Shown in pieces: positions 18,926-37,004 of a stretch of 37,601 nucleotides of DNA. A program made the position numbers and the translations under genes. Below the pieces are notes generated by a model that did no database searches, had not been told where the DNA came from, and saw nothing but the letters and a program-made list of their open reading frames with translations. Position 1 is the stretch's first letter. Each line of letters begins with the position of its first letter. The stretch is from a virus: the IMG/VR virus record IMGVR_UViG_3300044998_000961; one strand, 5' to 3'.

Positions 18926-19692
18926 GTGTAGCCCCTGACTGCTAATAGTTCGCGAATGCGAACGAAGGCGAGTTGCTCGATCTGCCGCACCCGCTGACGG
19001 GTGAGATTGAGCTCCTGCCCGATCTGATTGAGCGTGTGCGGGCCTTCCGTCCCGATGCCGAATCGCATACAAATCACCCGCTGCGAGCGCTCATCAAGGC
19101 AGCTGATCACATGGTGGATGTCGAGCGATTGCATATGCTCGACCGCCTCCTCTTCGACTGAGGCGGGGCCGGCGATAAACTCGCCGAGCGTTCGCGTATC
19201 TTCGGGCCGGGCCGGGGCATCCATCGAGAGGATCGCCCGTTCGTGCATCCGCACGGCCCGACCTACATTTTTATTTTTGAATTGTCCTTCCGGGTCAACC
19301 GGCCCACCGCTGCGCCGCTTGGCGCGACGCATCGTTTCATGCACATGTGCGGGCAAAGCGATCAGCCGATCGTTTTCCACAAACCGTTGCATCTTGTGGC
19401 GGATCCACGAATCCGCATAGGTCAAAAAATGGTGCCCGGAATTGATATCGAACTTTTCGATGGCTCTCACCAGACCGATCCATCCCTCATTGGTGAGATC
19501 TTCGATGTTGATCCCGGGGACGAGATACTTCCGCGCAACTGCGAATACATAGCGCATATGTGCCCGGGTGAGGGCGTCAAGCGCCTCGGCCTTCGCCTCG
19601 GCTGAGGCGCTCGGGTCTTGGTAGGTGGCAATATGCGCCATAATTTGCTGCTTCGGCAGCATTTCGCTAAGTTCTTGGTGTGGTATTGGCAT
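18910..19692 (-). CDS. Sigma-70 family RNA polymerase sigma factor
   Basis: Region 2 is DLTNEGWIGLVRAIEKFDINSGHHFLTYADSWIRHKMQRFV. Region 4 is LDERSQRVICMRFGI...HTLNQIGQELNLTRQRVRQIEQLAFVRIRELL. I chose ATG 19692. Confidence 0.85.
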   Translation of the reverse strand: MPIPHQELSEMLPKQQIMAHIATYQDPSASAEAKAEALDALTRAHMRYVFAVARKYLVPGINIEDLTNEGWIGLVRAIEKFDINSGHHFLTYADSWIRHKMQRFVENDRLIALPAHVHETMRRAKRRSGGPVDPEGQFKNKNVGRAVRMHERAILSMDAPARPEDTRTLGEFIAGPASVEEEAVEHMQSLDIHHVISCLDERSQRVICMRFGIGTEGPHTLNQIGQELNLTRQRVRQIEQLAFVRIRELLAVRGYTCDSL

Positions 19693-19703
19693 GGTTGGTT
19701 CCC

Positions 19704-19937
19704 TTACGGCGCTGTGCGCCGACTCGAGCGCACAGCGCCGAATGCTAGGCGATCTTCCTGCGGTCGGATTGTTGTCCGACTCTCGATAAACTCTCGCCAA
19801 GCCGACTCCGGGATCCGGCGCCCGCCGGGGAGTTGCACGAATTTCAATCCGTGATTAGCCATCCAGTTGTAGACAGCCTCTCTTGATACGTTTGCCATTT
19901 GGCAAATGTCCTGAATGGTATAAAGCTTTTCGGTCAT
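19704..19937 (-). CDS. Excisionase-family (MerR-like) HTH DNA-binding protein, probable early regulator
   Basis: LYTIQDICQMANVSREAVYNWMANHGLKFVQLPGGRRIPESAWREFIE fits the Xis/HTH_17 pattern. It is the first gene of the leftward operon, next to the divergent promoters. Confidence 0.65.
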   Translation of the reverse strand: MTEKLYTIQDICQMANVSREAVYNWMANHGLKFVQLPGGRRIPESAWREFIESRTTIRPQEDRLAFGAVRSSRRTAP

Positions 19938-22839: not shown

Positions 22840-23232
22840 ATGAGCAAAGCAAAATGGAACCAGGCTCGCGGGGTCTGGGATCGAAAGATCAATCCCCTGC
22901 GCAAGCAGGGATTCGTCGATATCCCGCCAGGCCACCCCGACCTGACCGCCCAGGCGGCGGCGGAGGCCGCCGAGATCGACGAGAAGGCCCGCCTGAAGGC
23001 GGAGACGGACGGGTTTGTCCGCGAACTCCTCCGTCTCCTTCCATCAGAGTGGAAGGTGACGGGCCAGCAATGGCCCGATTCTTCGTACACACGGCTGTTT
23101 CTCCGCGCGCCGGACGGGCGTGATGCGATAGCCGTGATCCGCCCGTCGGGATACGCGCTGAGCACGCCCGGCGCCGTCGCGGAGCGCCTGCTGGCGGCGT
23201 ATGCCTCGGCGGCATCAATCCTGTTCGCATAG
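22840..23232 (+). CDS. Hypothetical protein
   Basis: 130 aa, starting 2 nt after the upstream stop. Confidence 0.5.
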   Translation: MSKAKWNQARGVWDRKINPLRKQGFVDIPPGHPDLTAQAAAEAAEIDEKARLKAETDGFVRELLRLLPSEWKVTGQQWPDSSYTRLFLRAPDGRDAIAVIRPSGYALSTPGAVAERLLAAYASAASILFA

Positions 23233-23279
23233 CATAAAGGAGCCGCCTCGGCCGTCGGCCGAGGCGGCTCCTTTATGCT
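23231..23279 (+). terminator. Perfect 23-bp stem-loop ending the rightward small-gene operon
   Basis: agcataaaggagccgcctcggcc-gtc-ggccgaggcggctcctttatgct. Confidence 0.65.
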
Positions 23280-23513
23280 CCCTCAGGAAGTGGCGCTTGC
23301 GTTTCGGCGGTGGTCGGGCGACCATAGATCGCCCAACACCACCGCCGACGAAGAGCATCAGGAGATCGCGCGGATCGGGCAATCGCTGCCTGCGCGATCC
23401 GCGCCGGAAGCGTCGTTCTCATCGCCCACATCCCTGGGAGGATGTGGGCGATTGCTTTCATCGCTGACGCGCTGCGGCCATTCCAGGCCGAGCGCGGCGT
23501 ACCGCACCGCTGC
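23238..23513. repeat. RHH-gene / bidirectional-terminator module, copy 1 (degenerate)
   Basis: About 275 bp aligns with 26299-26573 at an offset of about 3059-3061 bp. The RHH reading frame here has no proper start or stop. Confidence 0.85.
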
Positions 23514-23663
23514 CCGCGCCGCGCTGCTGCGGGATGCGATGATTGCTCGATTGTGCGGATCGTTTCCAACCCACGCCAAGGCTTCGGCGAGGGCTGCGAA
23601 CCGATGAACGAGGTTGGGGCAAACGCCCCGATTGATTGCGTAAAAATGTCTGCTGTTTCTCAT
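23358..23663 (-). CDS. Hypothetical protein
   Basis: ATG 23663 has an aaggaag RBS, downstream of the paralog at 23754..24602. Its 3' half lies in repeat copy 1 and reads through the hairpin at 23423-23450. Confidence 0.35.
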   Translation of the reverse strand: MRNSRHFYAINRGVCPNLVHRFAALAEALAWVGNDPHNRAIIASRSSAARAAVRYAALGLEWPQRVSDESNRPHPPRDVGDENDASGADRAGSDCPIRAIS

Positions 23664-23753
23664 GTTTGGCCGCTTCCTTATAAAGATCCACCAGGTGGTG
23701 GTCTTTTCATGGCCGCGCGTCGGTCTCGGCCGACGCGCGGGCGAATGCCCCCC

Positions 23754-24602
23754 TCATTCGCCTACCAGACAACTGACCGTACTGCCCAGCAACGGGCGGT
23801 AGATCGTGATCGTCTCGCCGGGTTGCGGCGCGGTCGCAGGCACCGCGCCGGCGAACTGATCTGGATGCATCAAATATTCGCATGGCATCCAGCCATGCTC
23901 CTCTCCCCACTCGTCGGCCCGAATGATAAATTGCTGCAAGGCCTCGTAGAGGCCCTCTTCGGTTTGGCGACGCAGCCAGATGACGTCGCCGTTCATCATC
24001 TGGTAGGCTTTTCCTACGCGCACGGCAGCAGCCGAGCGTTCCTTTGGCGTCAGCGGGCGCTCGACCAGGCACGTTTGTGCCCGGTGCATGAGGCGCAGCG
24101 CGGTTCGGAGATTGTCACGAACCGCCGTGCACGTTTGTTCACGGTACATTCGTTCCAGCGCGGTGCGATGCACCACGCGAGCGCCGAGATAATTGAGATC
24201 TTCGACAAAATAATCTTCGAAAGCACAGAACACTTTTACCACTTTGCCATTACTGGCATCGTGGTACAAGTCTGCCAGCGCGGACGCGCCCATTGTCCGC
24301 GCTTCGGCCTCCGCTTCCCCGATGTTGCCCGGATTGATGTTCCGGGCATACCACCAGTGACGGTCGCCCTCTGGTTGCTGCAAAAAGATGCCTGCCGCCT
24401 CGCCGGCGATCCGGCAGGCTATCTCCTGGCGCCATTCGAATGGCGCCAGGAGATCTAGCAGCCATGCGAGATCTAAGCAATCCGGGTGGTGATCCGCGAT
24501 TTCCTCGAGCGAGCGGGGCTCGTCCCCCGCCCACTCGAGAAACTCCTCAATCTCCTCTGGGCAGGCATTGTGGTTTTCTAGCCATGTTTGATCAATTTTC
24601 AT
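23754..24602 (-). CDS. MKID-family paralog P1 (long form, 282 aa), unknown function
   Basis: aaggagga RBS. It shares the N-terminal and C-terminal modules with the other family members. Confidence 0.8.
   Translation of the reverse strand: MKIDQTWLENHNACPEEIEEFLEWAGDEPRSLEEIADHHPDCLDLAWLLDLLAPFEWRQEIACRIAGEAAGIFLQQPEGDRHWWYARNINPGNIGEAEAEARTMGASALADLYHDASNGKVVKVFCAFEDYFVEDLNYLGARVVHRTALERMYREQTCTAVRDNLRTALRLMHRAQTCLVERPLTPKERSAAAVRVGKAYQMMNGDVIWLRRQTEEGLYEALQQFIIRADEWGEEHGWMPCEYLMHPDQFAGAVPATAPQPGETITIYRPLLGSTVSCLVGE
24421..24454. repeat. Perfect 34-bp palindrome inside P1
   Basis: ATCTCCTGGCGCCATTC|GAATGGCGCCAGGAGAT. It encodes LLAPFEWRQEI. Confidence 0.95.
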
Positions 24603-24668
24603 TGGTTTCCTCCTTGCCGCTTCGTGGGCGGCTGTGGCCGCCCACAGAAATGTTGAGGGCTAAATTCT

Positions 24669-25520
24669 TCATTCGCCTACCAGACAACTGACCGTACTGC
24701 CCAGCAACGGGCGGTAGATCGTGATCTCCTCGCCCGGTTGCGGCGCGGTCTCTTCGACCGCGCCGGCGAACTGATCTGGATGCATCAAATATTCGCATGG
24801 CATCCATGCATATTCGACATCCCACTCGTCGGCCCGAATGATAAATTTCTGCAAGGCCTCGTAGAGGCCCTCTTCGTTTTGGTGCCGCACCCAGAAAACG
24901 TCGTCGCCTATTAGATAGGCTTTCCCCACCCGCTCGGCTGCTGCCGAGCGCTCTTCCGGGGACAGCGGGCGCTCGACCGGGCACGTCTGCGCGTGCTCGA
25001 TGACGCGCAGCGTGGTTCGGAGATTGTCACGAATATCCGTGCGCAAACTGGCACGGTACGTTCGTCTCATCCAGATTCGGATGTTGTTATTATCCCGAAT
25101 CTCGCTATCGTCTTTTGTCTCGAGATCCTCGATAATCTCGAGCAAACCGTAGAGAACATCCTCCACGTCGCCATTACTGGCATCGTGGTACAAGTCCGCC
25201 AGCGTCAACGCGCCTATTTTCCGCGCTTCTGCCTCCGCTTCTGCGATGTTGCCCGGATTGATGTTCCAGGCAAACCGCTCGTATCCCACGGATTGCCGAA
25301 AAAAGATGCCTGCCGCATCGCCGGCGAGGCGGCAGGCTATGTCCATTCGAATATCGAATGGAGCGACCTTGTCTATGATCCATGCGATATCGAAGGAATC
25401 CGGGTGGTGCTCCGCAATCTCCTCCAGTGAGCGGGGTTCGTTCCCCGCCCAATCGAGAAACCGCACAATTCCTTCTAGGTACGCATTGTGTTGTTTGAGC
25501 CAGGTTCGATCGATTTTCAT
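24669..25520 (-). CDS. MKID-family paralog P2 (long form, 283 aa), unknown function
   Basis: First gene behind the promoter-leader cassette at 25521-25630. It has the family N- and C-modules. Confidence 0.8.
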   Translation of the reverse strand: MKIDRTWLKQHNAYLEGIVRFLDWAGNEPRSLEEIAEHHPDSFDIAWIIDKVAPFDIRMDIACRLAGDAAGIFFRQSVGYERFAWNINPGNIAEAEAEARKIGALTLADLYHDASNGDVEDVLYGLLEIIEDLETKDDSEIRDNNNIRIWMRRTYRASLRTDIRDNLRTTLRVIEHAQTCPVERPLSPEERSAAAERVGKAYLIGDDVFWVRHQNEEGLYEALQKFIIRADEWDVEYAWMPCEYLMHPDQFAGAVEETAPQPGEEITIYRPLLGSTVSCLVGE

Positions 25521-25590
25521 TGGTTTCCTCCTTGCCGCGCGATAGCGCGCGTGTGGCCCCCACGAGGGGGTGTTTGAATATCATGACGCA

Positions 25591-25619
25591 ATTATAGCAC
25601 AATCATAATGCAATGTCAA
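25591..25619 (-). promoter_or_regulatory. Perfect-consensus sigma-70 promoter (cassette copy a) driving P2 and P1
   Basis: Minus strand reads TTGACA (25619-25614), 17 nt, TATAAT (25596-25591). Confidence 0.8.
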
Positions 25620-25677
25620 CGGGTATTTTTATGACAAAACTGTCATCAAATAGTTCGATCAATTATCAAATTGCCTA

Positions 25678-25705
25678 TTGATCATAGCGAAAGTTGTGGT
25701 ATGAT
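25678..25705 (+). promoter_or_regulatory. Sigma-70 promoter with extended -10, driving the small acidic-protein / RHH operon
   Basis: TTGATC (25678-25683), 16 nt ending in TGG, TATGAT (25700-25705). Confidence 0.7.
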
Positions 25706-25709
25706 GTTA

Positions 25710-25731
25710 TTATCAATAATCCGATTGATAA
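25710..25731. promoter_or_regulatory. Operator-like inverted repeat overlapping the predicted transcription start
   Basis: TTATCAAT-aatccg-ATTGATAA begins 5 nt after the -10. A related pair, TTATCAA-8 nt-TTGATCA (25663-25684), overlaps the -35. Confidence 0.5.
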
Positions 25732-25746
25732 TGAAAGGAACCCACA

Positions 25747-25989
25747 ATGACCACCGTAACCATCCGCATCACCCGCGAACGCTTGGCGGCCATGGACGAC
25801 CACGAGATGGTCGTCTATGGAACCCCGAACACGTGGGAGCCCTATTGGGCCTCACGGCCAAGCTTTATGTATGACAAGTGCCTCGCAACGCCACGCGATT
25901 TCTATGAGTTTTACGATCTCGATCGTGAAGCCTGTGACGATGACGAGGATGAGATTCTCGAGTTGACGGTTGTCGTTGATGAGGAATAA
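25747..25989 (+). CDS. Small, strongly acidic hypothetical protein (80 aa)
   Basis: About 21 D/E against 7 K/R by my count. The C-terminus is REACDDDEDEILELTVVVDEE. First gene after the 25678 promoter. Confidence 0.55.
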   Translation: MTTVTIRITRERLAAMDDHEMVVYGTPNTWEPYWASRPSFMYDKCLATPRDFYEFYDLDREACDDDEDEILELTVVVDEE

Positions 25990-26049
25990 CGTCGATATGT
26001 CATGGAAGCGAGGGGGGGATACCCCCTCGCTTCCGCTAGGAGCAAAACC

Positions 26050-26271
26050 ATGAAATTGAACGTGAATCGCTATTACGATCTTACCTGGAATGCGGAGGAT
26101 CAAGAGGGGAAATGGACAAGCGATGATGAAGGCTGTCTCGTGCTCCTCTGCCAGGAGCACGGTGACTTGCTGGAAGACGCCGGCGAAACCCAGTGGGCCG
26201 GCAACGGCGACTATGGCCACCTGTGTCGCTGTGAGTATCCCGGCTGCCTCATCAATAATGGTGTCAAATGA
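26050..26271 (+). CDS. Small acidic Cys-rich hypothetical protein (73 aa)
   Basis: ATG 26050 has an aggag RBS. It has six Cys (CLVLLC, CRCEYPGC) and a net negative charge. ATGA overlap with the RHH gene. Confidence 0.55.
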   Translation: MKLNVNRYYDLTWNAEDQEGKWTSDDEGCLVLLCQEHGDLLEDAGETQWAGNGDYGHLCRCEYPGCLINNGVK

Positions 26272-26474
26272 CCGGGAATAAGCGCAGTGGCAATCGAGGG
26301 AGCCGCCGTGGCCGCCGGCTGCGGCGCTCCTTCACGCTCCCTCAGGAAGTGGCGCTTGCTTTTCGCTTGTGGTGTTGGGCGATCTATGGTCGCCCAACGA
26401 CACCCGAAGAAGAGCAGCAGGAGATCGCGCGGATCGTACAGGCAGCGATTGCCCAATCCGCGCCGGAAGCATAG
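26268..26474 (+). CDS. Ribbon-helix-helix (CopG/Arc-like) DNA-binding protein
   Basis: A basic N-terminus is followed by RSFTLPQEVALAFRLW (strand plus helix A) and PEEEQQEIARIVQAAIAQ (helix B). A terminator follows immediately. Confidence 0.55.
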   Translation: MTGNKRSGNRGSRRGRRLRRSFTLPQEVALAFRLWCWAIYGRPTTPEEEQQEIARIVQAAIAQSAPEA

Positions 26475-26573
26475 TCATCATCGCCCACATCCTCTCAGGG
26501 ATGTGGGCGATTTCTTTCATCGCTGACGCGCTGCGGCCATTCCAGGTCGAGCGCGGCGTACCGTACCGCTGCT
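26299..26573. repeat. RHH-gene / bidirectional-terminator module, copy 2 (the only copy with an intact RHH ORF)
   Basis: Aligns with 23238-23513. Its 3' part also recurs at 30551-30641 and 31899-32010. Confidence 0.85.
26482..26518 (+). terminator. Intrinsic terminator after the RHH gene
   Basis: cgcccacatcc-tctcag-ggatgtgggcg followed by atttctttc. Confidence 0.75.
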
Positions 26574-26640
26574 TCGCATTGCGGCGCTTCATCCCACCGC
26601 GAAAGCGTGTGGGCTTTCGCGCCAAGGTTTCTGTAAAAGA

Positions 26641-26670
26641 ATGCCACCGGCTCGCTTGAGCCGGTGGCAT
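26641..26670. terminator. Bidirectional stem-loop terminator downstream of the tRNA
   Basis: atgccaccggctc-gctt-gagccggtggcat. It has T-rich tails on both strands (ttgatttg on plus, tcttttac on minus). Confidence 0.7.
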
Positions 26671-26679
26671 TTGATTTGA

Positions 26680-26752
26680 AACGAGAGACGGGGTTCGAAC
26701 CCGCGACATGCACCTTGGTAAGGTGGTGCTCTACCAACTGAGCTACTCCCGC
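26680..26752 (-). tRNA. tRNA-Gly-like gene with the atypical anticodon ACC
   Basis: The minus strand reads GCGGGAG TA GCTC AGTTGGTA GAGC A CCACC TTACCAA GGTGC ATGTC GCGGG TTCGAAC CCCGT CTCTCGT T. The cloverleaf has U8, A14, G18G19, U33 and a T-loop TTCGAAC. The body is close to the E. coli tRNA-Gly(GCC) I recall. Deviations are A34, a C27-C43 mismatch, G1-U72 and G4-U69 pairs, and no encoded CCA. Confidence 0.7.
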
Positions 26753-26761
26753 AATGCCATT

Positions 26762-26790
26762 AGTATAGCATAGCTCGGTTGGGAAAGCAA
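26762..26790 (-). promoter_or_regulatory. Dedicated sigma-70-type promoter for the tRNA
   Basis: Minus strand reads TTGCTT (26790-26785), 17 nt, TATACT (26767-26762). The -10 ends 9 nt before the tRNA 5' end. Confidence 0.6.
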
Positions 26791-26891
26791 ATCGTTAGCT
26801 CGAAAACCCTTTCGGCAGGTGGATCTGCCGATCGGGGCAGGCTATCATGGTGCGGCGCACCTGAACAAATGCCAGGTGCGCCGCACTATCC

Positions 26892-27344
26892 CTATGCTTC
26901 GGGCACGCTTCGCAACGCCTCGCGGAACATTGTGTCGATTTGCTCCGGCACGCGGCCGTCTCTTGTGAAATAATTTACGTATGTGAACATACAGTTTCTT
27001 ATTCTGCCAGCGCTGGCAGAATCACCAAGCATTTTGAGGCCTTCCGTCAGGCATTTCCACTTGACGCCGGCTCTGGCGAGCCGCATATAATCTTTTTCGC
27101 CTACCGGCGGCCAATCGTACCGATTGAATTCGCCGGTCGCCGCGTTGACCATATCGCAGGCCAACGCCATTCGAATGTCGAATGGACAAAGGAGATCTAT
27201 CAGCCATGCGAGATCTTTCGCATCCGGGTAGTGATCCGCGATTTCCTCGAGTGAGCGGGGCTGCTCCCCCGCCCACTCGACAAACCGCGCAATCCTCTCT
27301 GGGCAGGCATTGTGGCTTTTTAGCCACGCTACATCGATTTTCAT
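26892..27344 (-). CDS. MKID-family paralog P3 (short form, 150 aa), unknown function
   Basis: ATG 27344 lies behind cassette copy b. It has the family N-module up to the palindrome, then unrelated sequence ending IDTMFREALRSVPEA. Confidence 0.75.
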   Translation of the reverse strand: MKIDVAWLKSHNACPERIARFVEWAGEQPRSLEEIADHYPDAKDLAWLIDLLCPFDIRMALACDMVNAATGEFNRYDWPPVGEKDYMRLARAGVKWKCLTEGLKMLGDSASAGRIRNCMFTYVNYFTRDGRVPEQIDTMFREALRSVPEA

Positions 27345-27413
27345 GTCATTCCTCCTTGCCGCGCGATAGCGCGCGTGTGGCCCCCACGAGGGGGTGTCTG
27401 ATATCATGACGCA

Positions 27414-27442
27414 ATTATAGCACAATCATAATTCAATGTCAA
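27414..27442 (-). promoter_or_regulatory. Perfect-consensus sigma-70 promoter (cassette copy b) driving P3
   Basis: Minus strand reads TTGACA (27442-27437), 17 nt, TATAAT (27419-27414). Confidence 0.8.
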
Positions 27443-27520
27443 TGGGTATTTTTTTACGTCGATATGTAATGGAAGCGAGGGGGGATACCCCCTCGCTTCG
27501 TTGTCCAGATGCGCCGCACC

Positions 27521-28000
27521 CTATGCTTTGGGCAGAGCAACGCTCCGCAACGCCTCGCGGAACATTGTGTCGATATGCTCCGGCACGTCTTTGTCAAATT
27601 TGCTGACGAATGTCAACAATGTCTCGAGGACGCGTCCTCGGGACGCTTCCTCGTAGACATAGATGAGATCCTCCGACGATGCTCGCCAATTGAGCGCAAA
27701 TTCCAGGGCTTCCCCGATGTTGCCCGGATTGATGTTCCGGGCAAACCACCAGTGGCGGTAGCCGTAGCCTGGTCGCCGCGAAAAGATGCCTGCCGCCTCG
27801 CCGGCGATCTGGCAGGTTACGGCCATTCGATATTCGAATGGAGCGACCTTTTCTATGAGCCATGCGAGATCGAAGGAATTCGCGTGGTGCTCCGCGATTT
27901 CCTCGAGCGAGCGGGGCTCGTCCCCCGCCCACTCAACAAACCGCGCAATCACCTCTGGGCACGCATCGTGGCTTTTTAGCCACGCTACATCGATTTTCAT
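27521..28000 (-). CDS. MKID-family paralog P4 (short form, 159 aa), unknown function
   Basis: ATG 28000 has an aaggagga RBS after the intercistronic hairpin at 28022-28043. It ends IDTMFREALRSVALPKA. Confidence 0.75.
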   Translation of the reverse strand: MKIDVAWLKSHDACPEVIARFVEWAGDEPRSLEEIAEHHANSFDLAWLIEKVAPFEYRMAVTCQIAGEAAGIFSRRPGYGYRHWWFARNINPGNIGEALEFALNWRASSEDLIYVYEEASRGRVLETLLTFVSKFDKDVPEHIDTMFREALRSVALPKA

Positions 28001-28057
28001 TCTTTTCCTCCTTGCCGCTTCGTGGGCGGCCACAGCCGCCCACAGAAATGTTGAGGG

Positions 28058-28870
28058 CTAAATTCCTCCTTCGCCTACCAAACAATTGAACGTCCTGCCC
28101 AGCAACGGGCGGTAGATCGTGACCATCTCGCCGGGTTGCGGCGCGGTCGAAGAGACCGCGCCGGCGAACTGATCTGGATGCATCAAATATTCGCATGGTT
28201 CCCATGCATATTCGACACCCCACTCGTCGGCAATCATAATAAATCGCCGCAAGGCCTCGTAGAGGCCCTCTTCGGTTTGGCGACGCAGCCAGATGACGTC
28301 GCCGTTCATCATCTGGTAGGCTTTTCCTACGCGCTCGGCTGCTGCCGCGCGTTCCTTTGGCGTCAGCGCCCGCTCGACCGGGCACGTTTGTGCCCGGTGC
28401 ATGAGTCGCAGTGCGCGTCGCAGCGCGGTTCGGAGATTGTCACGCACCTCGCGAGCGTCGATTGAATCGAGATCCACAAAATCTTCGAAAGCACAGAGCA
28501 CTTTCACCACGTTGCCATTACTGGCATCGTGGTACAAGTCCGCCAGCGCGGACGCTTTCATCTGCCGCGCTTCTGCCTCCGCTTCTGCGATGTTGCCCGG
28601 ATTGATGTTGAAGGCAAACCGCGCGTGGCGGTCGCCCTCTGGTTGCTGCAAAAAGATGCCTGCCGCCTCGCCGGCGACCTGGCAACCTAAGTCCATTCGA
28701 ATGTCGAATGGACAAAGGAGATCTAGCAGCCATGCGAGATCTTTCGCATTCGGATGGTACATAGCAATCTCCTCCAGCGAGCGGGGCTGCTCCCCCGCCC
28801 ACTCGGAAAATCGCGCAACCCCCTCTGGGCAGGCATCGTGTTGTTTGAGCCAGGTTTGATCGATCTTCAT
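28058..28870 (-). CDS. MKID-family paralog P5 (long form, 270 aa), unknown function
   Basis: It has the family N- and C-modules and follows the 28885..29193 gene in the same operon. Confidence 0.8.
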   Translation of the reverse strand: MKIDQTWLKQHDACPEGVARFSEWAGEQPRSLEEIAMYHPNAKDLAWLLDLLCPFDIRMDLGCQVAGEAAGIFLQQPEGDRHARFAFNINPGNIAEAEAEARQMKASALADLYHDASNGNVVKVLCAFEDFVDLDSIDAREVRDNLRTALRRALRLMHRAQTCPVERALTPKERAAAAERVGKAYQMMNGDVIWLRRQTEEGLYEALRRFIMIADEWGVEYAWEPCEYLMHPDQFAGAVSSTAPQPGEMVTIYRPLLGRTFNCLVGEGGI

Positions 28871-28884
28871 TCTTTTCCCCTTCC

Positions 28885-29193
28885 CTAAATTGAGCGCTCA
28901 ATAATTTCGCGCTCAATGATGTCTATAGCCAAGCTTTGACGCGGATCTTTTCTGTAATGAATGAGCAATTTTGCTAATTCACTGATTGATGCTTGTTCTA
29001 CAATAGAAACAAGCGAACCGTCTTTTGTTGGGTTTTTCCCCCGCTCCACGAGCGGAGAAGACTCCGCCGGAATTTCGATTTCCTGAAGAGCTCTATCAAC
29101 AATTTCGCATTCAATTGCCCGCAATCTTGCGAGACGATCTGGGTGCGAGCTATTCCACCAGTAGTCAAGTTGTTTGCCAAGCTCCTTGATCAT
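28885..29193 (-). CDS. Hypothetical protein (102 aa) in a visibly lower-GC segment
   Basis: ATG 29193 has an aaggagga RBS directly behind cassette copy c. Unrelated to the MKID family. AT-rich compared with its neighbours. Confidence 0.55.
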   Translation of the reverse strand: MIKELGKQLDYWWNSSHPDRLARLRAIECEIVDRALQEIEIPAESSPLVERGKNPTKDGSLVSIVEQASISELAKLLIHYRKDPRQSLAIDIIEREIIERSI

Positions 29194-29261
29194 TGGTTCC
29201 TCCTTGCCGCGCGATAGTGCGCGGGTGGCCCCCACGAGGGGGTGTCTGATATCATGACGCA

Positions 29262-29290
29262 ATTATAGCACAATCATGATGCAATGTCAA
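29262..29290 (-). promoter_or_regulatory. Perfect-consensus sigma-70 promoter (cassette copy c) driving 28885..29193, P5 and P4
   Basis: Minus strand reads TTGACA (29290-29285), 17 nt, TATAAT (29267-29262). Confidence 0.8.
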
Positions 29291-29440
29291 TGGGTATTTT
29301 TTTACGTCGATATGTAATGGAAGCGAGGGGGGTATCCCCCCTCGCTTCGTTGTCCAGGCGCCGCACCCTATGCTTTGGGCAGAGCAACGCTCCGCTCATG
29401 CCCGCGCGGCGGCCGCCGGCCGCCGCGCGGCAGATGCCCT

Positions 29441-30229
29441 TCATTCGCCTACAATGCAACTGACCGTACCGCCCAGCAACGGGCGGTAGATCGTGATCTC
29501 CTCGCCCGGTTGCGGCGCGGTCGAAGAGACCGCGCCGACGAACTGATCTGGATGCATCAAATATTCGCATGGCTCCCATGCATATTCGACCCCCCACTCG
29601 TCGGCGATATACGCCGACTTCCAAAGAACCTCGTAGAGGCCCTCTTCGGTTTGGCGACGTACCCAGAAAACGTCGCCGTCTAGCTCATAGGCTTTTCCCA
29701 CCCGCGCGGCAGCAGCCGCGCGTTCCGCTGGCGTCAGCGCCCGCTCGACCGGGCACGTCTGCGCGTGCTCGATGAGGCGCAGCGCGGTTCGGAGATTGTC
29801 ACGAACCACGCGAGCGCCGATTGACTCGAGATCCACAAAATCTTCAAAAGCACAGAACACTTTTACCACTTTGCCCTTAGCTGCATCGTGGTACAAGTCT
29901 GCCAGCGCGGACGCTCCCATTGTCCGCGCGTCGGACTCCGCTTCCCCGATGTTGCCCGGATTGATGTTGAAGACATACCGCGCGTGGCGGTCGCCCTCTG
30001 GTTGCCGCGAAAAGATCGCGGCCGCCTCGCCGGCGATCCGGCAGGCTATCTCCTGGCGCCATTCGAATGGCGCCAGGAGATCTAGCAGCCATGCGAGATC
30101 TTTCGCATCCGGGTGGTACATAGCAATCTTCTCGAGCGAGCGGGGAGTCTCCCCCGCCCACTCGACAAACCGCGCAATCCCCTCTGGGCAGGCGTTTTGG
30201 TTTTGTAGCCAGGTTCGATCGATCTTCAT
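29441..30229 (-). CDS. MKID-family paralog P6 (long form, 262 aa), unknown function
   Basis: ATG 30229 lies behind cassette copy d. It has the family N- and C-modules and contains the 34-bp palindrome at 30048-30081. Confidence 0.8.
   Translation of the reverse strand: MKIDRTWLQNQNACPEGIARFVEWAGETPRSLEKIAMYHPDAKDLAWLLDLLAPFEWRQEIACRIAGEAAAIFSRQPEGDRHARYVFNINPGNIGEAESDARTMGASALADLYHDAAKGKVVKVFCAFEDFVDLESIGARVVRDNLRTALRLIEHAQTCPVERALTPAERAAAAARVGKAYELDGDVFWVRRQTEEGLYEVLWKSAYIADEWGVEYAWEPCEYLMHPDQFVGAVSSTAPQPGEEITIYRPLLGGTVSCIVGE
30048..30081. repeat. Perfect 34-bp palindrome inside P6 (same sequence as 24421-24454)
   Basis: ATCTCCTGGCGCCATTC|GAATGGCGCCAGGAGAT. Confidence 0.95.
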
Positions 30230-30299
30230 GTCATTCCTCCTTGCCGCGCGATAGTGCGCGGGTGGCCCCCACGAGGGGGTGTCTGAATATCATGACGCA

Positions 30300-30328
30300 A
30301 TTATAGCACAATCATAATGCAATGTCAA
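30300..30328 (-). promoter_or_regulatory. Perfect-consensus sigma-70 promoter (cassette copy d) driving P6
   Basis: Minus strand reads TTGACA (30328-30323), 17 nt, TATAAT (30305-30300). Confidence 0.8.
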
Positions 30329-30386
30329 CGGGTATTTTTTTTACGTCGATATGTAATGGAAGCGAGGGGGTATCCCCCCTCGCTTC

Positions 30387-30536
30387 GTTGTCCAGATGCG
30401 CCGCACCCTATGCTTTGGGCAGAGCAACGCTCCGCTCATGCCCGCGCGGCGGCCGAGACCGACGCGCGGCAGATGCCCTTCATTCGCCTACCAAACAACT
30501 GACCGTACCGCCCAGCAACGGGCGGTAGATCGTGAA
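30387..30536 (-). pseudogene. Truncated seventh MKID-family cassette (3' end only)
   Basis: 30480-30535 encodes ...TIYRPLLGGTVSCLVGE plus a stop, with no upstream body. 30387-30436 matches the last codons and stop of short form P4. The same 3' flank follows the intact P6. Confidence 0.7.
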
Positions 30537-30550
30537 ATAATAATAGATGT

Positions 30551-30641
30551 AGGAGATCGCGCGGATCGCGCAATTGCCTCCTGCCCAATCCGCGCCGGAA
30601 GCGGAGTCATCATCGCCCACATCCTCTCAGGGATGTGGGCG
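30551..30641. repeat. RHH 3'-end / terminator module, copy 3 (remnant) just upstream of the Dam-like gene
   Basis: ggagatcgcgcggatcg...ccgcgccggaagc...cgcccacatcctctcagggatgtgggcg. It has no start or stop for the RHH frame. Confidence 0.85.
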
Positions 30642-30655
30642 TGAGATAAAAATGT

Positions 30656-31852
30656 ATGCTGATGGAGATAATTATGAGTCTATCAACCTATCAAAAATCG
30701 ATGTTTCCGTATTTCGGTGGCAAATCCTTGGCAGCGCCGCTTGTCTGGTCATTGCTTGGCGATCCTGCGCACTATGTTGAGCCTTTTTTTGGCAGCGGCG
30801 CGGTGCTGCTGTTTCGCCCGCATCCAGCAAATAGATCGAATTTTTCTGAAACGGTCAATGATTTCGACGGATTTATCGCCAATTTTTGGCGAGCTATGCA
30901 ATATGATGCGCAAGCTACCGTCGAATTTGCTTCGTGGCCGGTCGTCGAGGCTGAGCTGCACGCGCGGCATATTGCTATTATCCAATGGATGCGCGACGGC
31001 AATGCGGAACGGTTGGCTGGCGATGTGCAATATTATGATGCGCGGATTGCAGGGTATTGGTTGTACGGAATTTGCGCCTGGATCGGCTCTGGTTGGGGCC
31101 ACGAGCAGAGCGGCCCCTGGTGGCCTGATGCTGACGGTCGTCTGGTCAAGCGTTCGGGCAATTCAGGCGTGACTCGAAAACTACCACATGTGAGCGCCGA
31201 TGGTCAGGGCGTGCATCACTGCAAGGCACGTGAGCCAGGAGTGACTCGACAACTACCACGTGTGGGCGCCGATGGTCAGGGCGTCCATCACTGCAAGGCA
31301 CGTGAGCCAGGCGTGACGCGAAAACTACCACATCAGGATGAGGATTTAGCTGATATCATCGAGGCTGATTACGCGGCCTCAGACGAATACCATCCTATGA
31401 CGATGCCCGAAATTCGCCGGTGGGCCCATTGGCTCCAAGCGCGTATGCGTCATGTGCGCGTGGCGAACGGTGATTGGCAGCGGATTTGTAGCTCCAGCGT
31501 ATTGCGCCCAATGCCTAGGGGAGGCAAGCCCCATGTGTCGGGCATCTTCCTTGATCCGCCGTATAAACACAGCGAGAGATCAGCGCAATTGTATCGAGAG
31601 GATCAAGACATTGCATCTGACGTACGCGAATGGTGCCTACAAAATGGCAACAATTCTCAATATCGGATAGTGCTGGCGGGGTTCGCCGGCGAGGGACACG
31701 AAATATTAGAAAAAAATGGCTGGAGCGTGTATGAATGGTACGAACACCAATTGTTCAGGAGCGGCTATGGGCACCAGCAGCATCGAGAACGTCTGTGGGC
31801 GTCGCCGCATTGCTTGCTTCCAATGTTGCCGCTGGATGCGCTCTGGGAATAA
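30656..31852 (+). CDS. Dam-like (D12 class) N6-adenine DNA methyltransferase with an internal tandem repeat
   Basis: Motifs are FPYFGGK, YVEPFFGSGAV (AdoMet motif) and IFLDPPYKHS (DPPY catalytic motif). The likely start is ATG 30674, with GGAG 6 nt upstream. Lower GC than its surroundings. Confidence 0.8.
   Translation: MLMEIIMSLSTYQKSMFPYFGGKSLAAPLVWSLLGDPAHYVEPFFGSGAVLLFRPHPANRSNFSETVNDFDGFIANFWRAMQYDAQATVEFASWPVVEAELHARHIAIIQWMRDGNAERLAGDVQYYDARIAGYWLYGICAWIGSGWGHEQSGPWWPDADGRLVKRSGNSGVTRKLPHVSADGQGVHHCKAREPGVTRQLPRVGADGQGVHHCKAREPGVTRKLPHQDEDLADIIEADYAASDEYHPMTMPEIRRWAHWLQARMRHVRVANGDWQRICSSSVLRPMPRGGKPHVSGIFLDPPYKHSERSAQLYREDQDIASDVREWCLQNGNNSQYRIVLAGFAGEGHEILEKNGWSVYEWYEHQLFRSGYGHQQHRERLWASPHCLLPMLPLDALWE
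31166..31333 (+). repeat. In-frame 72-bp tandem repeat, 2.3 copies, inside the Dam-like gene
   Basis: Units start at 31166, 31238 and 31310 (partial). They encode GVTRKLPHVSADGQGVHHCKAREP, then GVTRQLPRVGADGQGVHHCKAREP, then GVTRKLPH. Confidence 0.9.
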
Positions 31853-31898
31853 TGCAATGCCCGCTGCATTATTCTCGTGGTGGCCGACGAGGGCACCA

Positions 31899-32010
31899 CG
31901 AGATCGCGCGGATCGTGCAGGAGGCAATTGCGCGATCCGCGCCGGAAGCGTCGTCATCATCGCCCACATCCTCTCAGGGATGTGGGCGCGTTTTTTCATC
32001 GCTGACGCGC
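31899..32010. repeat. RHH 3'-end / terminator module, copy 4 (remnant) just downstream of the Dam-like gene
   Basis: cgagatcgcgcggatcg...ccgcgccggaagcgtcgtcatcatcgcccacatcctctcagggatgtgggcg...catcgctgacgcgc. Confidence 0.85.
31961..31997 (+). terminator. Intrinsic terminator after the Dam-like gene
   Basis: cgcccacatcc-tctcag-ggatgtgggcg followed by cgttttttc. Confidence 0.8.
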
Positions 32011-32121
32011 AAAGGATCATCCCTGATCGCCGGACTCCACCCCAGAGCGATCAGGGATACCCTACTATAGTGCGAATGTCAAACGCCATCCAGATCAGCG
32101 TTTGACTCGTATGCCATACTG

Positions 32122-32945: not shown

Positions 32946-33440
32946 ATGGCGCGGCCAAAGCTCAATGCCGACCAACGCATCCAGGTGATTGAGTGGCTCG
33001 CCGCTGGCTATGCGGGCGATCTTATTCGGCATTGGAGCAAGGAGCGGGGATGGCCAGAAATCAGCGATCAGGCGCTCAACTATTATCGCAAACGTCTGAG
33101 CAAGCCCATCGAAGCAGCCCGCAAGGCTCGCTTTGCGGCCGCGCTGAACACGGGACTCGCGCTGCGGGCCGAACGGGTGGCTCGCCTGGCCGCCCATGCC
33201 GATCGGCTTGAGATCATCAAATGGGAAGCGGACGAGAACGGGCGATTATGGAATGAGAAAGCATGGCGCGAAACGCTCGACGATATCGCCCGCGAGACCG
33301 GCGGCCGCCGTGCGGGAGTCTCCGTGAGCCTAGAGTCAGAGCTGGAGTCTTTTCTTGACCGAGTCCGCGAACAATTCGACCCGGATACCTACGCCCGGAT
33401 CGTTGCTCTCGCAGCTGGCAGCGCGACGGATTCAGCGTGA
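32946..33440 (+). CDS. terS: Terminase small subunit
   Basis: ATG 32946 has a ggagaaag RBS. The N-terminus looks like an HTH (ADQRIQVIEWLAAGYAGDLIRHW). It lies immediately upstream of the large terminase. Confidence 0.6.
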   Translation: MARPKLNADQRIQVIEWLAAGYAGDLIRHWSKERGWPEISDQALNYYRKRLSKPIEAARKARFAAALNTGLALRAERVARLAAHADRLEIIKWEADENGRLWNEKAWRETLDDIARETGGRRAGVSVSLESELESFLDRVREQFDPDTYARIVALAAGSATDSA

Positions 33441-33468
33441 TCCCGAGCTTGCGTCGCGCATCCGAGCA

Positions 33469-34896
33469 ATGAGCCCCAGCGCCCCAGCCGGGGCCGCGAT
33501 CCGTTGGTCGCCATTTGTTGGGCCGCAAACCATGGCCTTGCATAGCGAGGCCGATATTATCGGCTACGGCGGGGCCGCTGGAGGCGGCAAAACGGATCTG
33601 CTGATCGGGGCGGCACTGCTCATGCATTATCGGTCGATCATCTTTCGCCGCCAAGCCGAGCAGCTGCGCGATATTATCGAGCGTTCCAAAGAGATCATCG
33701 GATCGTCCGGGCGATTGAATGAGAATTATAAAATCTGGCGCGATCTGCCTGGCGGCCGCCGACTTGAATTTGGCGGGATGAAAAATGAGCACGACGTGAA
33801 TCGCTATCGCGGGCGAGCGCACGATCTCAAGGCGTTTGATGAGCTCACCGAATTTAGCGAAATGCAATTCAGAACGATTATTGCATGGAATCGTTCCGCT
33901 GAGGGGCATCGATGCCGCACGATCGCGGCGTTCAACCCGCCGACTTCGCAGTATGGCATGTGGGTGATCAAGTTTTTCGGCCCGTGGATCGACCCAGCCT
34001 ATAAAGGCGTCCGGGCGAAGCCCGGCGAACTGCGCTATTTCGCCATGGTCGACGGCAAAGAGATTGAGCGGCCCGGCCCGGACGCGTTTGAACACGGCGG
34101 GCGAATTATCCAACCAAAAAGCCGTACGTTCATCCCCGCGCGACTCGAGGATAATCCGGCCCTGCTGGCGAGCGGCTATGCGGCGACTCTTGATGCGCTG
34201 CCCGAGCCGCTCGCCACGGCGCTGCGTACGGGATCGTTTATCATGGCGCACGGGGCCGATCCCTGGGCCGTCATCCCCAGGGCCTGGGCTGAAGCGGCCC
34301 GGCGGCGAGGGATCGAGCGGGGCAATCCCACGGGGCCGATCTCCATGCTGGGAGTCGACGTTGCTCGGGGCGGCGACGACGAAACGGTGATTGCCCGGCG
34401 TCGCGGGACGGCCTTCGATCCGCTGCTGGTATGGCCTGGCAAAGAAACGCCGGATGGGCCGAGCGTGGCAACGCTGGTCATCCAGCAAATGGAGTCTCCC
34501 GAAGATCCGATCACGGTCGACGGGATCGGCGTAGGGGGGAGCGTGGTCGATCAGCTGGCCGCGATCGACGGCATCCGGATAACGGCGGCGATCGCGAGCA
34601 TGCGCAGCGATCCTACGGCCCGCGATCGGCGCGGCATGCTCAGCTTCAAAAATGATCGGGCGATGTGGTGGTGGCGTTTCCGTGAGGCGCTTGATCCGAA
34701 TCACGGCGATGAGATTGCCTTGCCCGATGACGACGCCTTGATCGAAGAGCTCTGCGCACCGCGATTCATGGTGCGATCGGGGACGATCCAGATCGAGGAA
34801 AAAGACGACATCAAAATGCGCTTGGGGCGCTCGCCGAATCGTGCAGATGCGCTGCTCTTAGCGCATCAAGAGAGCGCATCATTGATGCTATGGTGA
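33469..34896 (+). CDS. terL: Terminase large subunit
   Basis: Walker A is GYGGAAGGGKTD, Walker B is LKAFDELTEF, and the nuclease-domain motif is GVDVARGGDDETVIA. The start is uncertain because the ORF opens at 33355. Confidence 0.9.
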   Translation: MSPSAPAGAAIRWSPFVGPQTMALHSEADIIGYGGAAGGGKTDLLIGAALLMHYRSIIFRRQAEQLRDIIERSKEIIGSSGRLNENYKIWRDLPGGRRLEFGGMKNEHDVNRYRGRAHDLKAFDELTEFSEMQFRTIIAWNRSAEGHRCRTIAAFNPPTSQYGMWVIKFFGPWIDPAYKGVRAKPGELRYFAMVDGKEIERPGPDAFEHGGRIIQPKSRTFIPARLEDNPALLASGYAATLDALPEPLATALRTGSFIMAHGADPWAVIPRAWAEAARRRGIERGNPTGPISMLGVDVARGGDDETVIARRRGTAFDPLLVWPGKETPDGPSVATLVIQQMESPEDPITVDGIGVGGSVVDQLAAIDGIRITAAIASMRSDPTARDRRGMLSFKNDRAMWWWRFREALDPNHGDEIALPDDDALIEELCAPRFMVRSGTIQIEEKDDIKMRLGRSPNRADALLLAHQESASLMLW

Positions 34897-34901
34897 GGGA
34901 T

Positions 34902-37004
34902 ATGCTGAATAGCCCTGGCCCGATGAAAGCCATCCCCGTCGACCAATATCCCGAGGAATCATGGTGGGTTTTGGGGGGCCAAACGGGCATGCCCGATGGG
35001 GCGCTTTCGCCGCATTTGGCCTATAGCAAGGTCGGATTGTTGTATCGCGCCGTCGACATTCGGGCGAAAGCCGTATCGGCCTTTCCCTTGACGATCGAAC
35101 GCAATGGGCGCGATGTGACGAAGGACGACGAGACGCTGGCCTTCCGGCATGATCTTCGCCGGGCGCTTTGGCTCACCGAGGCGTCATTGTGTTTGTACGG
35201 CGCTTCCTACGCCTTGGCCCTCCACAACGGCCTGAAATGGCTGCAGCCGCAGACCATCACCCCCAACTATGATCCGAACGCTGCCGACGGGATCGCCGGA
35301 TGGACTCGCCGAGTCAACGGCAAAGAGATCCGCATCAAGCCGAAAGACATTACCTATACATGGCTGCCCAATTTGGCCGAAGAGATCGGCCCGGGCATTG
35401 CTCCTGCCGTCCCAGCGCTGGCCGCTGCAGGGGTGCTCCACAATCTTGATCGCTATTTGGCTGGCTATTTCGAGCGGGGCGCGATTCGGGCAACGCTGTT
35501 GATCGTCGAGGGCCAGCCGAGCAAAGACGAAAAGGAAAAACTTGAAAAATGGTGGAAGCGGATGCTGTCGGGAGTCAAAAAGGCCTACGAAACCGTGGCG
35601 CTACGATCGAACGTGAAGCCAGTGGTGATCGGCGATGGGCTGCAAGAAACGACGAATAAGGAACTGACCGATCAGCAACGCGAGGGTATTCTCATCCCCA
35701 TGGGGGTGCCGATTTCGATCGTGCTCTCGAATGCGTCGACGTTCGCGACCGCACAACAGGATTCGCTCAATTTCTACGATCTGACCGTATGCCCTCAGAT
35801 CGAGTTAATCGCCGAGTCGTTTGAACCATGGTTTCAAAAAACGGGGTATCGGGTGATTTTCCATCCGGAGCGGCTTGATGTGTACGTGGATCGACTGCTC
35901 CGCAAAGCCGATGCGCTGAGCAAAATCAGCGGCCCTCAGCCATTGCTTGATCGCGACGAGTCGCGGCGCATGCTGAATCTGCCGCCGTGGGCCGACGTCG
36001 CACCGCCCGAGCCACCGGCCCGGGCAGCATTGCCCGATCCGCCACGGAATTCGAACGCCCCCCAGGGCGAGGCGATCGACCAAACCAATACGCCAAGCAA
36101 CCCCCAGCCAACCAATACAAGCCCATCCGCCAAGCAACCCCCAGCCCCCAGCAAGGCGTACGATCTCGACCTGGCCCGATGGGAGAAAAAGGCCGCCAAG
36201 CGGATCGCCGCCGGGCGCTCGCCGGGGCCGTTTCAGAGCGATTCGATCCCCGTGGGCTTGCAGGCCGAAATCCGCTCCCTCCTCGATCAGGCCGAAGGGG
36301 CCGCCGATGTGGGCGCGATCTTCCGGGCAATCCATCGCGGCCCGGGGCAGGATCTGAGCGCAACGGAGCAATGGTTGTATGACGCGCTGGTCGCATTGTT
36401 TGCCCGATTCGAATCGGCGATCGTCGATCAGATTATCAGCGGGGGAGCGGTCGACCTCGCGCAGCTAGACTCGGCCATGCGGGACAAAATGACTGAGGCG
36501 ATGATCAACGTCATCATTGACAAGTTGATCGCGCTCCCCGCGACTCTCGATCTGCCAGCGGTCGACCCGGTGCAATTGCGGTTCGAGCCGATGGCCCTAT
36601 GGGCCGATCAATATATCGACCCCGTCATCGGAGGCATCCAACAAACCAATCGGCAATTGGTCGAGTCCGCCGTGCAGCTCTATCGCGCCACACCGGGCAT
36701 GACGCGAGCTCATGTCGAGGCGATGATCGCCGCACGATTTGGCGCGGCTCGGGCCGATATGATCGCGGTAACAGAGATCACGCGGGCGCAAAGCCTGGCA
36801 ACCCGCTACTATCAGGAGTATCTCCGCCGGGCCGGGATCACCATGGTACGTGTTTGGCGAACAAACCGCGATGATCTCGTGTGCGCCGTTTGTGGCCCGC
36901 TCAATGGCAAGCCCGAGTCCGCATGGGCCGATCGCTATCCGAACGGCGCCCCGGCCCATGCCGGGTGCCGCTGTTCGCAAACGCTTCAGCTGGAGTCCGA
37001 ATAA
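34902..37004 (+). CDS. Portal protein fused to a MuF / SPP1 gp7-like head morphogenesis domain
   Basis: It follows terL. The N-terminal 370 aa or so are portal-like. A P/N/Q-rich linker leads to a C-terminal domain with ITRAQSLATRYY...VWRTNRDDLVCAVCGPLNGK...HAGCRCS, the MuF signature. An alternative ATG lies at 34890. Confidence 0.75.
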   Translation: MLNSPGPMKAIPVDQYPEESWWVLGGQTGMPDGALSPHLAYSKVGLLYRAVDIRAKAVSAFPLTIERNGRDVTKDDETLAFRHDLRRALWLTEASLCLYGASYALALHNGLKWLQPQTITPNYDPNAADGIAGWTRRVNGKEIRIKPKDITYTWLPNLAEEIGPGIAPAVPALAAAGVLHNLDRYLAGYFERGAIRATLLIVEGQPSKDEKEKLEKWWKRMLSGVKKAYETVALRSNVKPVVIGDGLQETTNKELTDQQREGILIPMGVPISIVLSNASTFATAQQDSLNFYDLTVCPQIELIAESFEPWFQKTGYRVIFHPERLDVYVDRLLRKADALSKISGPQPLLDRDESRRMLNLPPWADVAPPEPPARAALPDPPRNSNAPQGEAIDQTNTPSNPQPTNTSPSAKQPPAPSKAYDLDLARWEKKAAKRIAAGRSPGPFQSDSIPVGLQAEIRSLLDQAEGAADVGAIFRAIHRGPGQDLSATEQWLYDALVALFARFESAIVDQIISGGAVDLAQLDSAMRDKMTEAMINVIIDKLIALPATLDLPAVDPVQLRFEPMALWADQYIDPVIGGIQQTNRQLVESAVQLYRATPGMTRAHVEAMIAARFGAARADMIAVTEITRAQSLATRYYQEYLRRAGITMVRVWRTNRDDLVCAVCGPLNGKPESAWADRYPNGAPAHAGCRCSQTLQLESE

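Follow-up and report, generated by a model that had tools for sequence, protein, structure and literature searches.

Template switching at imperfect inverted repeats was first described in phage T4, and perfect inverted repeats are maintained by template switching (PMC5941160). The T4 work concerned quasi-palindromes in rII (Ripley 1982, as cited in PMC5941160), and quasi-palindrome-associated mutation has been described in E. coli as well (PMC7202029). In coding genes of yeast, the spacers of inverted repeats are inverted and their arms homogenised, and these changes are recurrent and reversible (PMC8604942). For RNA genes, "loop inversion only," stem creation, and one-step compensation have been recognised as template-switch patterns (PMC8794818). 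Work on the evolution of RNA hairpins by template switching in rRNA and microRNA genes found loops of mostly 4 nt (up to 7-8), with 69 cases in a very large rRNA data set (PMC8794818; PMC5453318). Minute hairpin-associated inversions also occur in chloroplast non-coding DNA, for example in the trnH-psbA spacer (PMC2903610). Here we analyse a contig of 37,601 nt from an uncultivated phage (IMG/VR record IMGVR_UViG_3300044998_000961; "the window" refers to this whole stretch) in which many short spacers between inverted repeats are reverse-complemented from one copy of a repeated element to the next.

The window is a tailed phage, according to its gene annotation. The contig has a direct overlap of 127 nt between its ends (1-127 and 37475-37601), so it is circularly closed and is a complete genome of ~37.5 kb (about 37,474 bp). 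All of the flipped spacers lie within an accessory region at ~23.2-32.1 kb, which contains the genes of a paralogous family that we call P and modules composed of a small open reading frame (ORF) and a hairpin. In this region, orphan paralogous genes form an array that was recently amplified and is driven by strong promoters, and they are accompanied by four full or partial copies of the module (S1-S4; Table 1). In ~9 kb there are at least 13 spacer inversions. These are spread over at least 10 loci with mutually unrelated arm sequences (arms of 5-13 bp, spacers of 3-14 bp). The inversions keep the length of the sequence, and they are bounded by inverted arms that are present in both the parental and the derived forms. 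The best explanation, and one that we think likely to be correct, is that replication switches templates at quasi-palindromes, which would both invert spacers and homogenise arms. Because the region is repeated, such events become visible as flipped spacers between copies.

A previous sequence-only reading of the window had claimed that the spacers of hairpins are reverse complements of each other at eight loci, and every coordinate and sequence that it gave was correct. (We keep its numbering of the cases.) At the base level, the inversion is exact for cases 1, 4, 5, and 7. The two copies in case 1 (23316-23334 and 26377-26395) have 5 mismatches when compared directly and none when one copy is reverse-complemented. 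The corresponding numbers are 4 and 0 for case 4 (24624-24645 vs. 28022-28043) and 2 and 0 for case 5 (27472-27499 vs. 30359-30386, which are two of the four copies in the window). Case 7 comprises two pairs of exact reverse complements, 23380-23392 with 26439-26451 and 30571-30583 with 31918-31930. Inversion is also seen in cases 2 and 3, but there it is one base short of exact: case 2 (23423-23450 vs. 26482, 30614, and 31961) has 6 mismatches directly and 1 to the reverse complement, and case 3 (23713-23740 vs. 30442-30469) has 5 and 1. A scan with a terminator consensus (a G+C-rich stem and a T-run, downstream of a gene) matched two of the four case-2 hairpins, at 26480 and 31961; the case-5 hairpins were weak matches, and those of cases 3 and 4 failed.

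Two of the flips had also been said to change the encoded peptide, and both changes are real: FDIRM versus FEYRM for case 6, and IVQAAIAQ versus IGQSLPAR for case 7. In case 6, the palindrome in P4s and its flanking bases are the exact 21-nt reverse complement of the version in the related contig sequence L003a. The unpaired bases that flank the arms are swapped as well (T...C becomes G...A). Similarly, the hairpin in L003 that corresponds to the case-5 hairpin at 26005 is its exact 29-nt reverse complement (G5-TAT-C7 instead of G7-ATA-C5). The mirroring of G7/C5 and the swapped flanks in case 6 favour a true inversion of the whole unit.

A scan for inverted matches with direct flanks, along with a codon alignment of the paralogs, identified three more flip loci (A, B, and C), all within P genes. 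At locus A, the reverse complement of the P2 spacer, gaaga, is found in P5 (28140-28162) and P6 (29514-29536), which encode SS at this site. At locus B, the flip in P2 converts RIAGEA to RLAGDA (the P1 copy is at 24390-24418). At locus C, the copies at 24021 and 29705 have one orientation and those at 24933 and 28334 have the other; this flip is synonymous (Ala-Ala). In the arms of locus C, S/E has become A/A through a double change that is compensated, and each of the two substitutions is non-synonymous. Overall, some of the in-gene flips alter 1-5 amino acids, in frame.

Arm homogenisation and the creation of palindromes occur in the same sequences as the spacer inversions. The 5' part of module S1 has been overwritten by copying, which created a 49-nt perfect palindrome. 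The right arm of this palindrome has homology to the 5' part of the S2 small ORF, and the left arm is the reverse complement of the right. A 34-nt palindrome in P1 and P6 corresponds to a quasi-palindrome in the other paralogs, where 4-9 of the 17 positions pair; homogenisation of its arms changes FDIRMD to FEWRQE. The case-3 hairpin at 29402 was converted to a perfect palindrome of 29 nt. Finally, a palindrome that is specific to P6 has one arm that is common to the paralogs, while the other arm is its reverse complement and replaces unrelated sequence. This changes QFIIR to KSAYI.

The direction of some of the flips can be determined by comparison to a related 41-kb phage (contigs L007/L008), whose small ORF is 88% identical. 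At the corresponding sites, this phage is oriented like 26377, 26428, and 31907 of the window, which makes 23316, 23369, and 30560 the derived copies. The derived flips are in the decayed copy (S1) and in a fragment. S1 is a decayed duplicate with three inversions, and if these are undone, the mismatches between S1 and S2 over 247 nt fall from 36 to 23. S1 has accumulated about one inversion per eight point substitutions. The flips also recur. In case 7, the two flipped copies have different unflipped partners, and each matches its own as an exact reverse complement, so two independent flips took place, and case 5 requires at least three events across paralogs and corresponding loci. We found no intermediate states of the spacers among 11 gene copies and 4 module copies (from few genomes).

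Natural variants show both orientations at corresponding sites. At the site that corresponds to 30359-30386, contig L005 has ATA, while the window and L009 have TAT, with nearly identical flanks; L005 and L009 are from the same sample. In contig L006, which is ~90% identical to P5, locus A is in the orientation of P2, opposite to P5. The variant contigs (L003, L005, and L006) are from sibling-sample metagenomes, and these are differences between strains. Indirectly, they suggest that spacer switching may still be going on. (L005 has two other changes. It does not have the 35-nt case-3 hairpin at 30437-30471 of the window, owing to a deletion between ATGCCC direct repeats, and its P6 ortholog has a frameshift at the C-terminus caused by a 5-nt tandem duplication, ACCGC, near ~29466. 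Both are slippage-type events in the same hairpin-rich DNA.)

Could independent substitutions in loops, with selection on stem pairing only, mimic reverse complements by chance? We aligned all homologous copies pairwise and scored clusters of mismatches as in-place reverse complements. As controls, we ran "reverse-only" and "complement-only" versions of the search, and as a null model, we kept the positions of the mismatches and randomised the substituted bases (200 runs). Among clusters with at least 5 mismatches, we found 14 pair-events at 6 loci, while both controls gave none and the null averaged 0.54, with no run above 3. Where a hairpin has the same arms in both copies, 10 of the 21 distinct multi-base differences in the spacer are exact inversions, as compared to 0.62 expected. 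A template-switch scan gave a similar picture: 36 of 1456 unique mismatch clusters can be explained by local reverse-complement copying of at least 12 nt, and the controls gave none. Thus, chance is refuted for the long spacers. For smaller clusters it does better, as those with 3-4 mismatches are no more common than in the null across the alignments (26 vs. 33, and 4 vs. 3.35). But the asymmetries outside the loop, as seen in cases 5 and 6, are inverted along with it, and we find it extremely improbable that chance accounts for the flips as a whole.

The data are from metagenome assemblies of a repetitive region, and contigs from sibling samples do break at repeats. Chimeric fold-back reads, or a de Bruijn graph that crosses a palindrome in either direction, might therefore produce false flips at hairpins. 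We consider such artefacts to be very unlikely. The arms are only 5-13 bp, much shorter than the assembly k-mers (as indicated by the 127-nt terminal overlap), so the orientations are determined by the reads. Also, the orientations of the window recur in four independent contigs, L001, L002, and L009 from another JGI sample (3300045902) and L010 from a Logan assembly (SRR30649438), which match 8.1 kb of the region at 99.85-100% identity, and the in-gene flips preserve the reading frame. Small palindromic mobile elements that insert at the same sites in either orientation would fit the presence of the case-3 hairpin at 30442 in the window and its absence from L005. However, direct repeats such as the ATGCCC around that indel are typical of slippage deletions; the in-gene flips keep both frame and length; the arms differ at every locus; and scans of the ORFs with Pfam and PHROG found no transposase. 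This idea seems scarcely credible. Programmed site-specific inversion (an inverton, or phase variation), which would toggle regulatory hairpins or protein segments, would account for the two orientations at corresponding loci in natural variants and for the in-frame changes to proteins. But the same scans of the complete genome detected no serine or tyrosine recombinase or invertase. An enzyme of this kind would have to recognise at least 10 different arm sequences, with no one conserved site, and spacers of 3-14 bp are far below the range of invertases. Furthermore, the derived flips in the decayed copy destroy the ORF. Programmed inversion is, in our view, exceedingly unlikely. Lastly, inversion might be non-replicative, with extrusion of a hairpin or cruciform followed by cleavage and re-joining, or with short-homology recombination between the arms. 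The product of a pure spacer flip would be identical to that of a template switch, in single-stranded form the hairpins have stable folds (-8 to -21 kcal/mol, z of -3 to -9), and the genome encodes a DUF1064 protein. Given established DNA mechanics, though, arms of 5-13 bp that are 3-14 bp apart should be unable to synapse as duplexes, and cutting and re-joining does not copy one arm from the other, as the creation of palindromes and the homogenisation of arms require. We view non-replicative inversion as unlikely. (Gene conversion from an inverted copy was also considered, and is excluded because the complete genome contains no inverted copy. All of the long inverted matches are in place, with directly repeated sequence on either side.)

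We propose that template switching during replication could give rise to these changes as follows. Occasionally, on reaching one arm of an inverted repeat, the nascent strand would come off its template. It would then copy the complementary strand across the spacer and switch back at the other arm, and a single event would replace the spacer with its reverse complement. With the switch points elsewhere, imperfect arms would be made perfect, or new long palindromes would be built. The sequence-only reading had put forward either hairpin-mediated template switching or recombination between the arms. The former is supported by inversions that are exact, length-preserving, arm-bounded, and recurrent, and by the companion palindromes. 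The latter falls away because in the companion events one arm must have served as the template for the other, and recombination between the arms cannot bring this about. From these patterns, we infer that polymerase template switching during replication is the source of the events.

Hairpins are strikingly dense in this region. Perfect hairpins with stems of at least 8 bp and loops of at most 16 nt number 56 at 23200-32100, with 3.1 expected, and 41 at 1-23200, with 9.1 expected; in the related phage, the enrichment is 2.5-3.4-fold, no more. We also counted stems of at least 7 bp in each gene, with codon shuffles as the baseline. The P paralogs have 7-12 hairpins per kb (4.4 per kb for the short P3s) while codon-shuffled P genes have ~1.1 per kb, an excess of about 8-10-fold. 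The other genes of the genome have 1-4.5 per kb, and the adjacent gene for the D12 methyltransferase has 0.8 per kb. In a test for selection on structure, the palindrome arms in P genes were not more conserved than other alignment columns, and many of the perfect stems are found in just one P paralog. This suggests mutation-driven turnover more than it does conserved functional structures.

Several observations weigh against template switching, or limit what it explains. The excess of hairpins is centred on the P genes, which a uniform genome-wide mutational process would not by itself predict. An extra factor is needed; relaxed constraint, strong transcription, or selection for hairpins are possible reasons. 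Taken one by one, flips that change only 2-4 bases could be due to chance, and since clusters of 3-4 mismatches are not enriched, cases 4 and 6 and the 2-base versions of case 5 count only within the overall pattern. About 2.5% of the mismatch clusters between copies look like template switches, which makes template switching a visible but minor contributor to divergence. Also, every orientation may be fixed in its strain. And sequence alone cannot separate template switching from other kinds of hairpin-dependent copying or repair.

A more speculative idea is that the P array is a hot spot for template switching that the phage exploits, with in-frame quasi-palindromes as built-in sites of diversification. 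We think that this is improbable. If it were true, single switches by the polymerase would swap blocks of 1-5 amino acids (EE/SS, DI/EY, RIAGE/RLAGD, and DIRMD/EWRQE). Diversity would be generated without a recombinase or a reverse transcriptase, from quasi-palindromes at ~ten times their expected density in strongly transcribed cassettes.

The P genes are a true orphan family. A word-indexed search of 5.8 billion proteins found 10 homologs, and a profile search of 1.84 billion representatives found 4 matches; the homologs are all from a few sibling JGI metagenomes. The family has no match in Pfam, PHROG, or PADLOC. The AlphaFold model of a P protein is mediocre (pLDDT of 65) and has no fold match with E < 0.01 in PDB or BFVD. 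The P paralogs are mosaics of one another. The promoters of the four P cassettes are identical, and each matches the sigma-70 consensus at 12/12 positions (TTGACA-17-TATAAT, with a TG extended -10). In the related 41-kb phage, there is a single 177-amino-acid gene with a P-like N-terminus (MQIDWRWLTMHNACQEGIDRF..; L007 2372-2905 / L008 10274-10807), directly downstream of the small ORF and on the same strand, whereas in the window's phage the P genes are amplified and on the opposite strand from the small ORF. The small ORF has no family match in the Pfam and PHROG scans.

We also looked for relatives of this phage. Among INPHARED phages, megablast found none, either with 1-25000 or with 23200-32100 as the query. 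Neither the P1 protein nor the case-2 hairpin pattern had a match in IMG/VR, the hairpin pattern had no match in metagenome_contigs, and the major head protein had no match in GTDB genomes. No gene for a DNA polymerase turned up when the ORFs of the complete genome were scanned with Pfam and PHROG, nor any for a recombinase or transposase.

The window has other unusual features. Inside the P array is a tRNA-Gly (26680-26752, minus strand) with the anticodon ACC, that is, with A at position 34; a bacterial-type tRNA-Gly normally has a GCC anticodon, so ACC is unusual. It is flanked by two strong hairpins (26640-26671 and 26850-26886), and it is the only match in an Rfam scan of the window. At 17766-17935, within an ORF (17313-18203, minus strand) that adjoins the DnaC-like loader, a perfect palindrome of 32 nt (ATGATCATGATCATACGTATGATCATGATCAT) precedes 3-4 iterons of ~33 nt (GCAGATCACTGATCTGGAGATCACTGTTTTGAT). 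This arrangement is probably a replication origin. The gene for the D12 methyltransferase contains a 72-nt tandem duplication (31164-31307, copies 93% identical) that repeats a 24-amino-acid segment (..GVTRKLPHVSADGQGVHHCKAREP..).

Table 1. Positions of the flipped hairpins, palindromes, modules, and genes in the window
Feature	Position	Strand	Remarks
Major head protein	803-2017		
DUF1064 protein	15953-16378		
DnaC-like helicase loader	16580-17482		
MT-A70 methyltransferase	18200-19072		
Sigma-70 factor	18910-19800		phage-encoded
Module S1	23231-23450		small ORF + hairpin; decayed duplicate
49-nt perfect palindrome	23231-23279	.	24-nt arms; in S1, directly after stop of ORF 22840-23232
Case 1, flipped (derived)	23316-23334	+	GGGCGA-ccataga-TCGCCC; in decayed module S1
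Case 7, flipped (derived)	23369-23403	+	core is exact reverse complement of 26428-26462 core
Case 2 hairpin, loop ctggga	23423-23450	+	reverse complement of tctcag loop except for one base
Case 3 hairpin	23713-23740	.	downstream of P1; reverse complement of 30442-30469 except for one base
P gene array	23754-30229	-	six paralogous genes in four cassettes
P1	23754-24602	-	
Locus C	24021-24036	-	CGGC-agca/tgct-GCCG; in-gene
34-nt perfect palindrome	24421-24454	-	in P1; identical at 30048-30081 in P6
Case 4 hairpin	24624-24645	.	GTGGGCGGC-tgtg-GCCGCCCAC; between P2 and P1
P2	24669-25520	-	
Locus A	24742-24764	-	GGCGCGGTC-tcttc-GACCGCGCC in P2; amino acids EE
Locus B	25308-25336	-	12-mer ATCGCCGGCGAG (coding strand, all other paralogs) inverted to CTCGCCGGCGAT in P2
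Case 6 in P2	25343-25361	-	CCATTCGA-ATA-TCGAATGG; spacer ata on + strand; amino acids FDIRM
Cassette promoters (four)	25591-25619, 27414-27442, 29262-29290, 30300-30328	-	one before each P cassette
Case 5 hairpin	26005-26033	.	G7-ATA-C5
Module S2	26268-26509		intact small ORF 26268-26474
Case 1, ancestral	26377-26395	+	GGGCGA-tctatgg-TCGCCC; within intact small ORF 26268-26474
Case 7, ancestral orientation	26428-26462	+	encodes ...EIARIVQAAIAQ, as in related phage
Case 2 hairpin, loop tctcag	26482-26509	+	terminator-like; identical at 30614-30641 and 31961-31988
P3s	26892-27344	-	
Case 5 hairpin	27472-27499	.	G6-ATA-C5
P4s	27521-28000	-	
Case 6 in P4s	27823-27841	-	CCATTCGA-TAT-TCGAATGG; amino acids FEYRM
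Case 4 hairpin, inverted spacer	28022-28043	.	spacer caca; between P5 and P4s
P5	28058-28870	-	
Case 5 hairpin	29320-29348	.	G6-TAT-C6
Case 3, third copy	29402-29430	.	perfect 29-nt palindrome CCGCGCGGCGGCCG-C-CGGCCGCCGCGCGG
P6	29441-30229	-	
P6-specific palindrome	29600-29618	-	GTCGGCGATATACGCCGAC
Case 5 hairpin	30359-30386	.	G5-TAT-C6
Case 3 hairpin	30442-30469	.	downstream of truncated P-like 3' end
Module S3	30553-30641		fragment
Case 7, second flip	30560-30594	+	core is exact reverse complement of 31907-31941 core
D12 adenine methyltransferase	30656-31852		
Module S4	31876-31988		
Case 7, ancestral orientation	31907-31941	+	in module S4
Large terminase	33355-34896		
Portal	34890-37004		

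The mechanism is already known, and the window is a new and unusually dense instance of it in a phage, with in-frame consequences for proteins. Template-switch mutations are usually found singly, across whole genomes, and here many of them, along with new palindromes, are found in one 9-kb region. Some of the inversions have in-frame effects on proteins, and natural strains that occur together differ at some of them. The region could serve as a compact natural model for the rates of template switching and its causes, such as hairpin stability, transcription, and the direction of replication. There is also a caution for comparative work: a cluster of multi-base differences between phage paralogs or strains can be one mutational event instead of several selected substitutions. 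Such clusters affect estimates of divergence, dN/dS tests, and alignments of phage accessory genes.

How does this region compare to known systems? The hairpins of parvoviruses and poxviruses that exist in "flip" and "flop" forms are at the ends of linear genomes and arise via hairpin transfer during terminal resolution. As in our case, the two forms are reverse complements of each other, but the hairpins in the window are all internal to a circularly assembled genome. Invertons also have a segment between inverted repeats in both orientations. They depend on a dedicated recombinase and on specific repeats that are longer, and the segments that they flip measure tens to hundreds of bp; we found none of this here. 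The inversions in chloroplast DNA are small and bounded by palindromic arms, as they are here, and they are homoplastic and variable within species. They differ in being in an organelle and only in non-coding spacers, with no array of paralogs and no consequences for proteins. All three outcomes known from rRNA and microRNA hairpins (loops inverted in perfectly paired hairpins, newly made long stems with perfect pairing, and compensation in one step) are present in the window, but here many of the events affect protein-coding sequence and the terminator-like hairpins of a phage. (The literature that we searched contained no paper that pairs "spacer inversion" with phage, which is weak evidence of absence.)

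The template-switch mutations of T4, E. coli, and yeast are similar in more ways. There, too, a spacer between short inverted arms is replaced by its exact reverse complement, with no change in length; the change involves multiple bases in one step, and it recurs and reverses at the same site; and amino acids change in frame, with arm homogenisation alongside. The main difference is density, with at least 13 events in ~9 kb of this phage. Some of its arms are only 5-8 bp and its spacers reach 13-14 nt, and the events can be seen by comparing either strains or the paralogs of a single phage genome.

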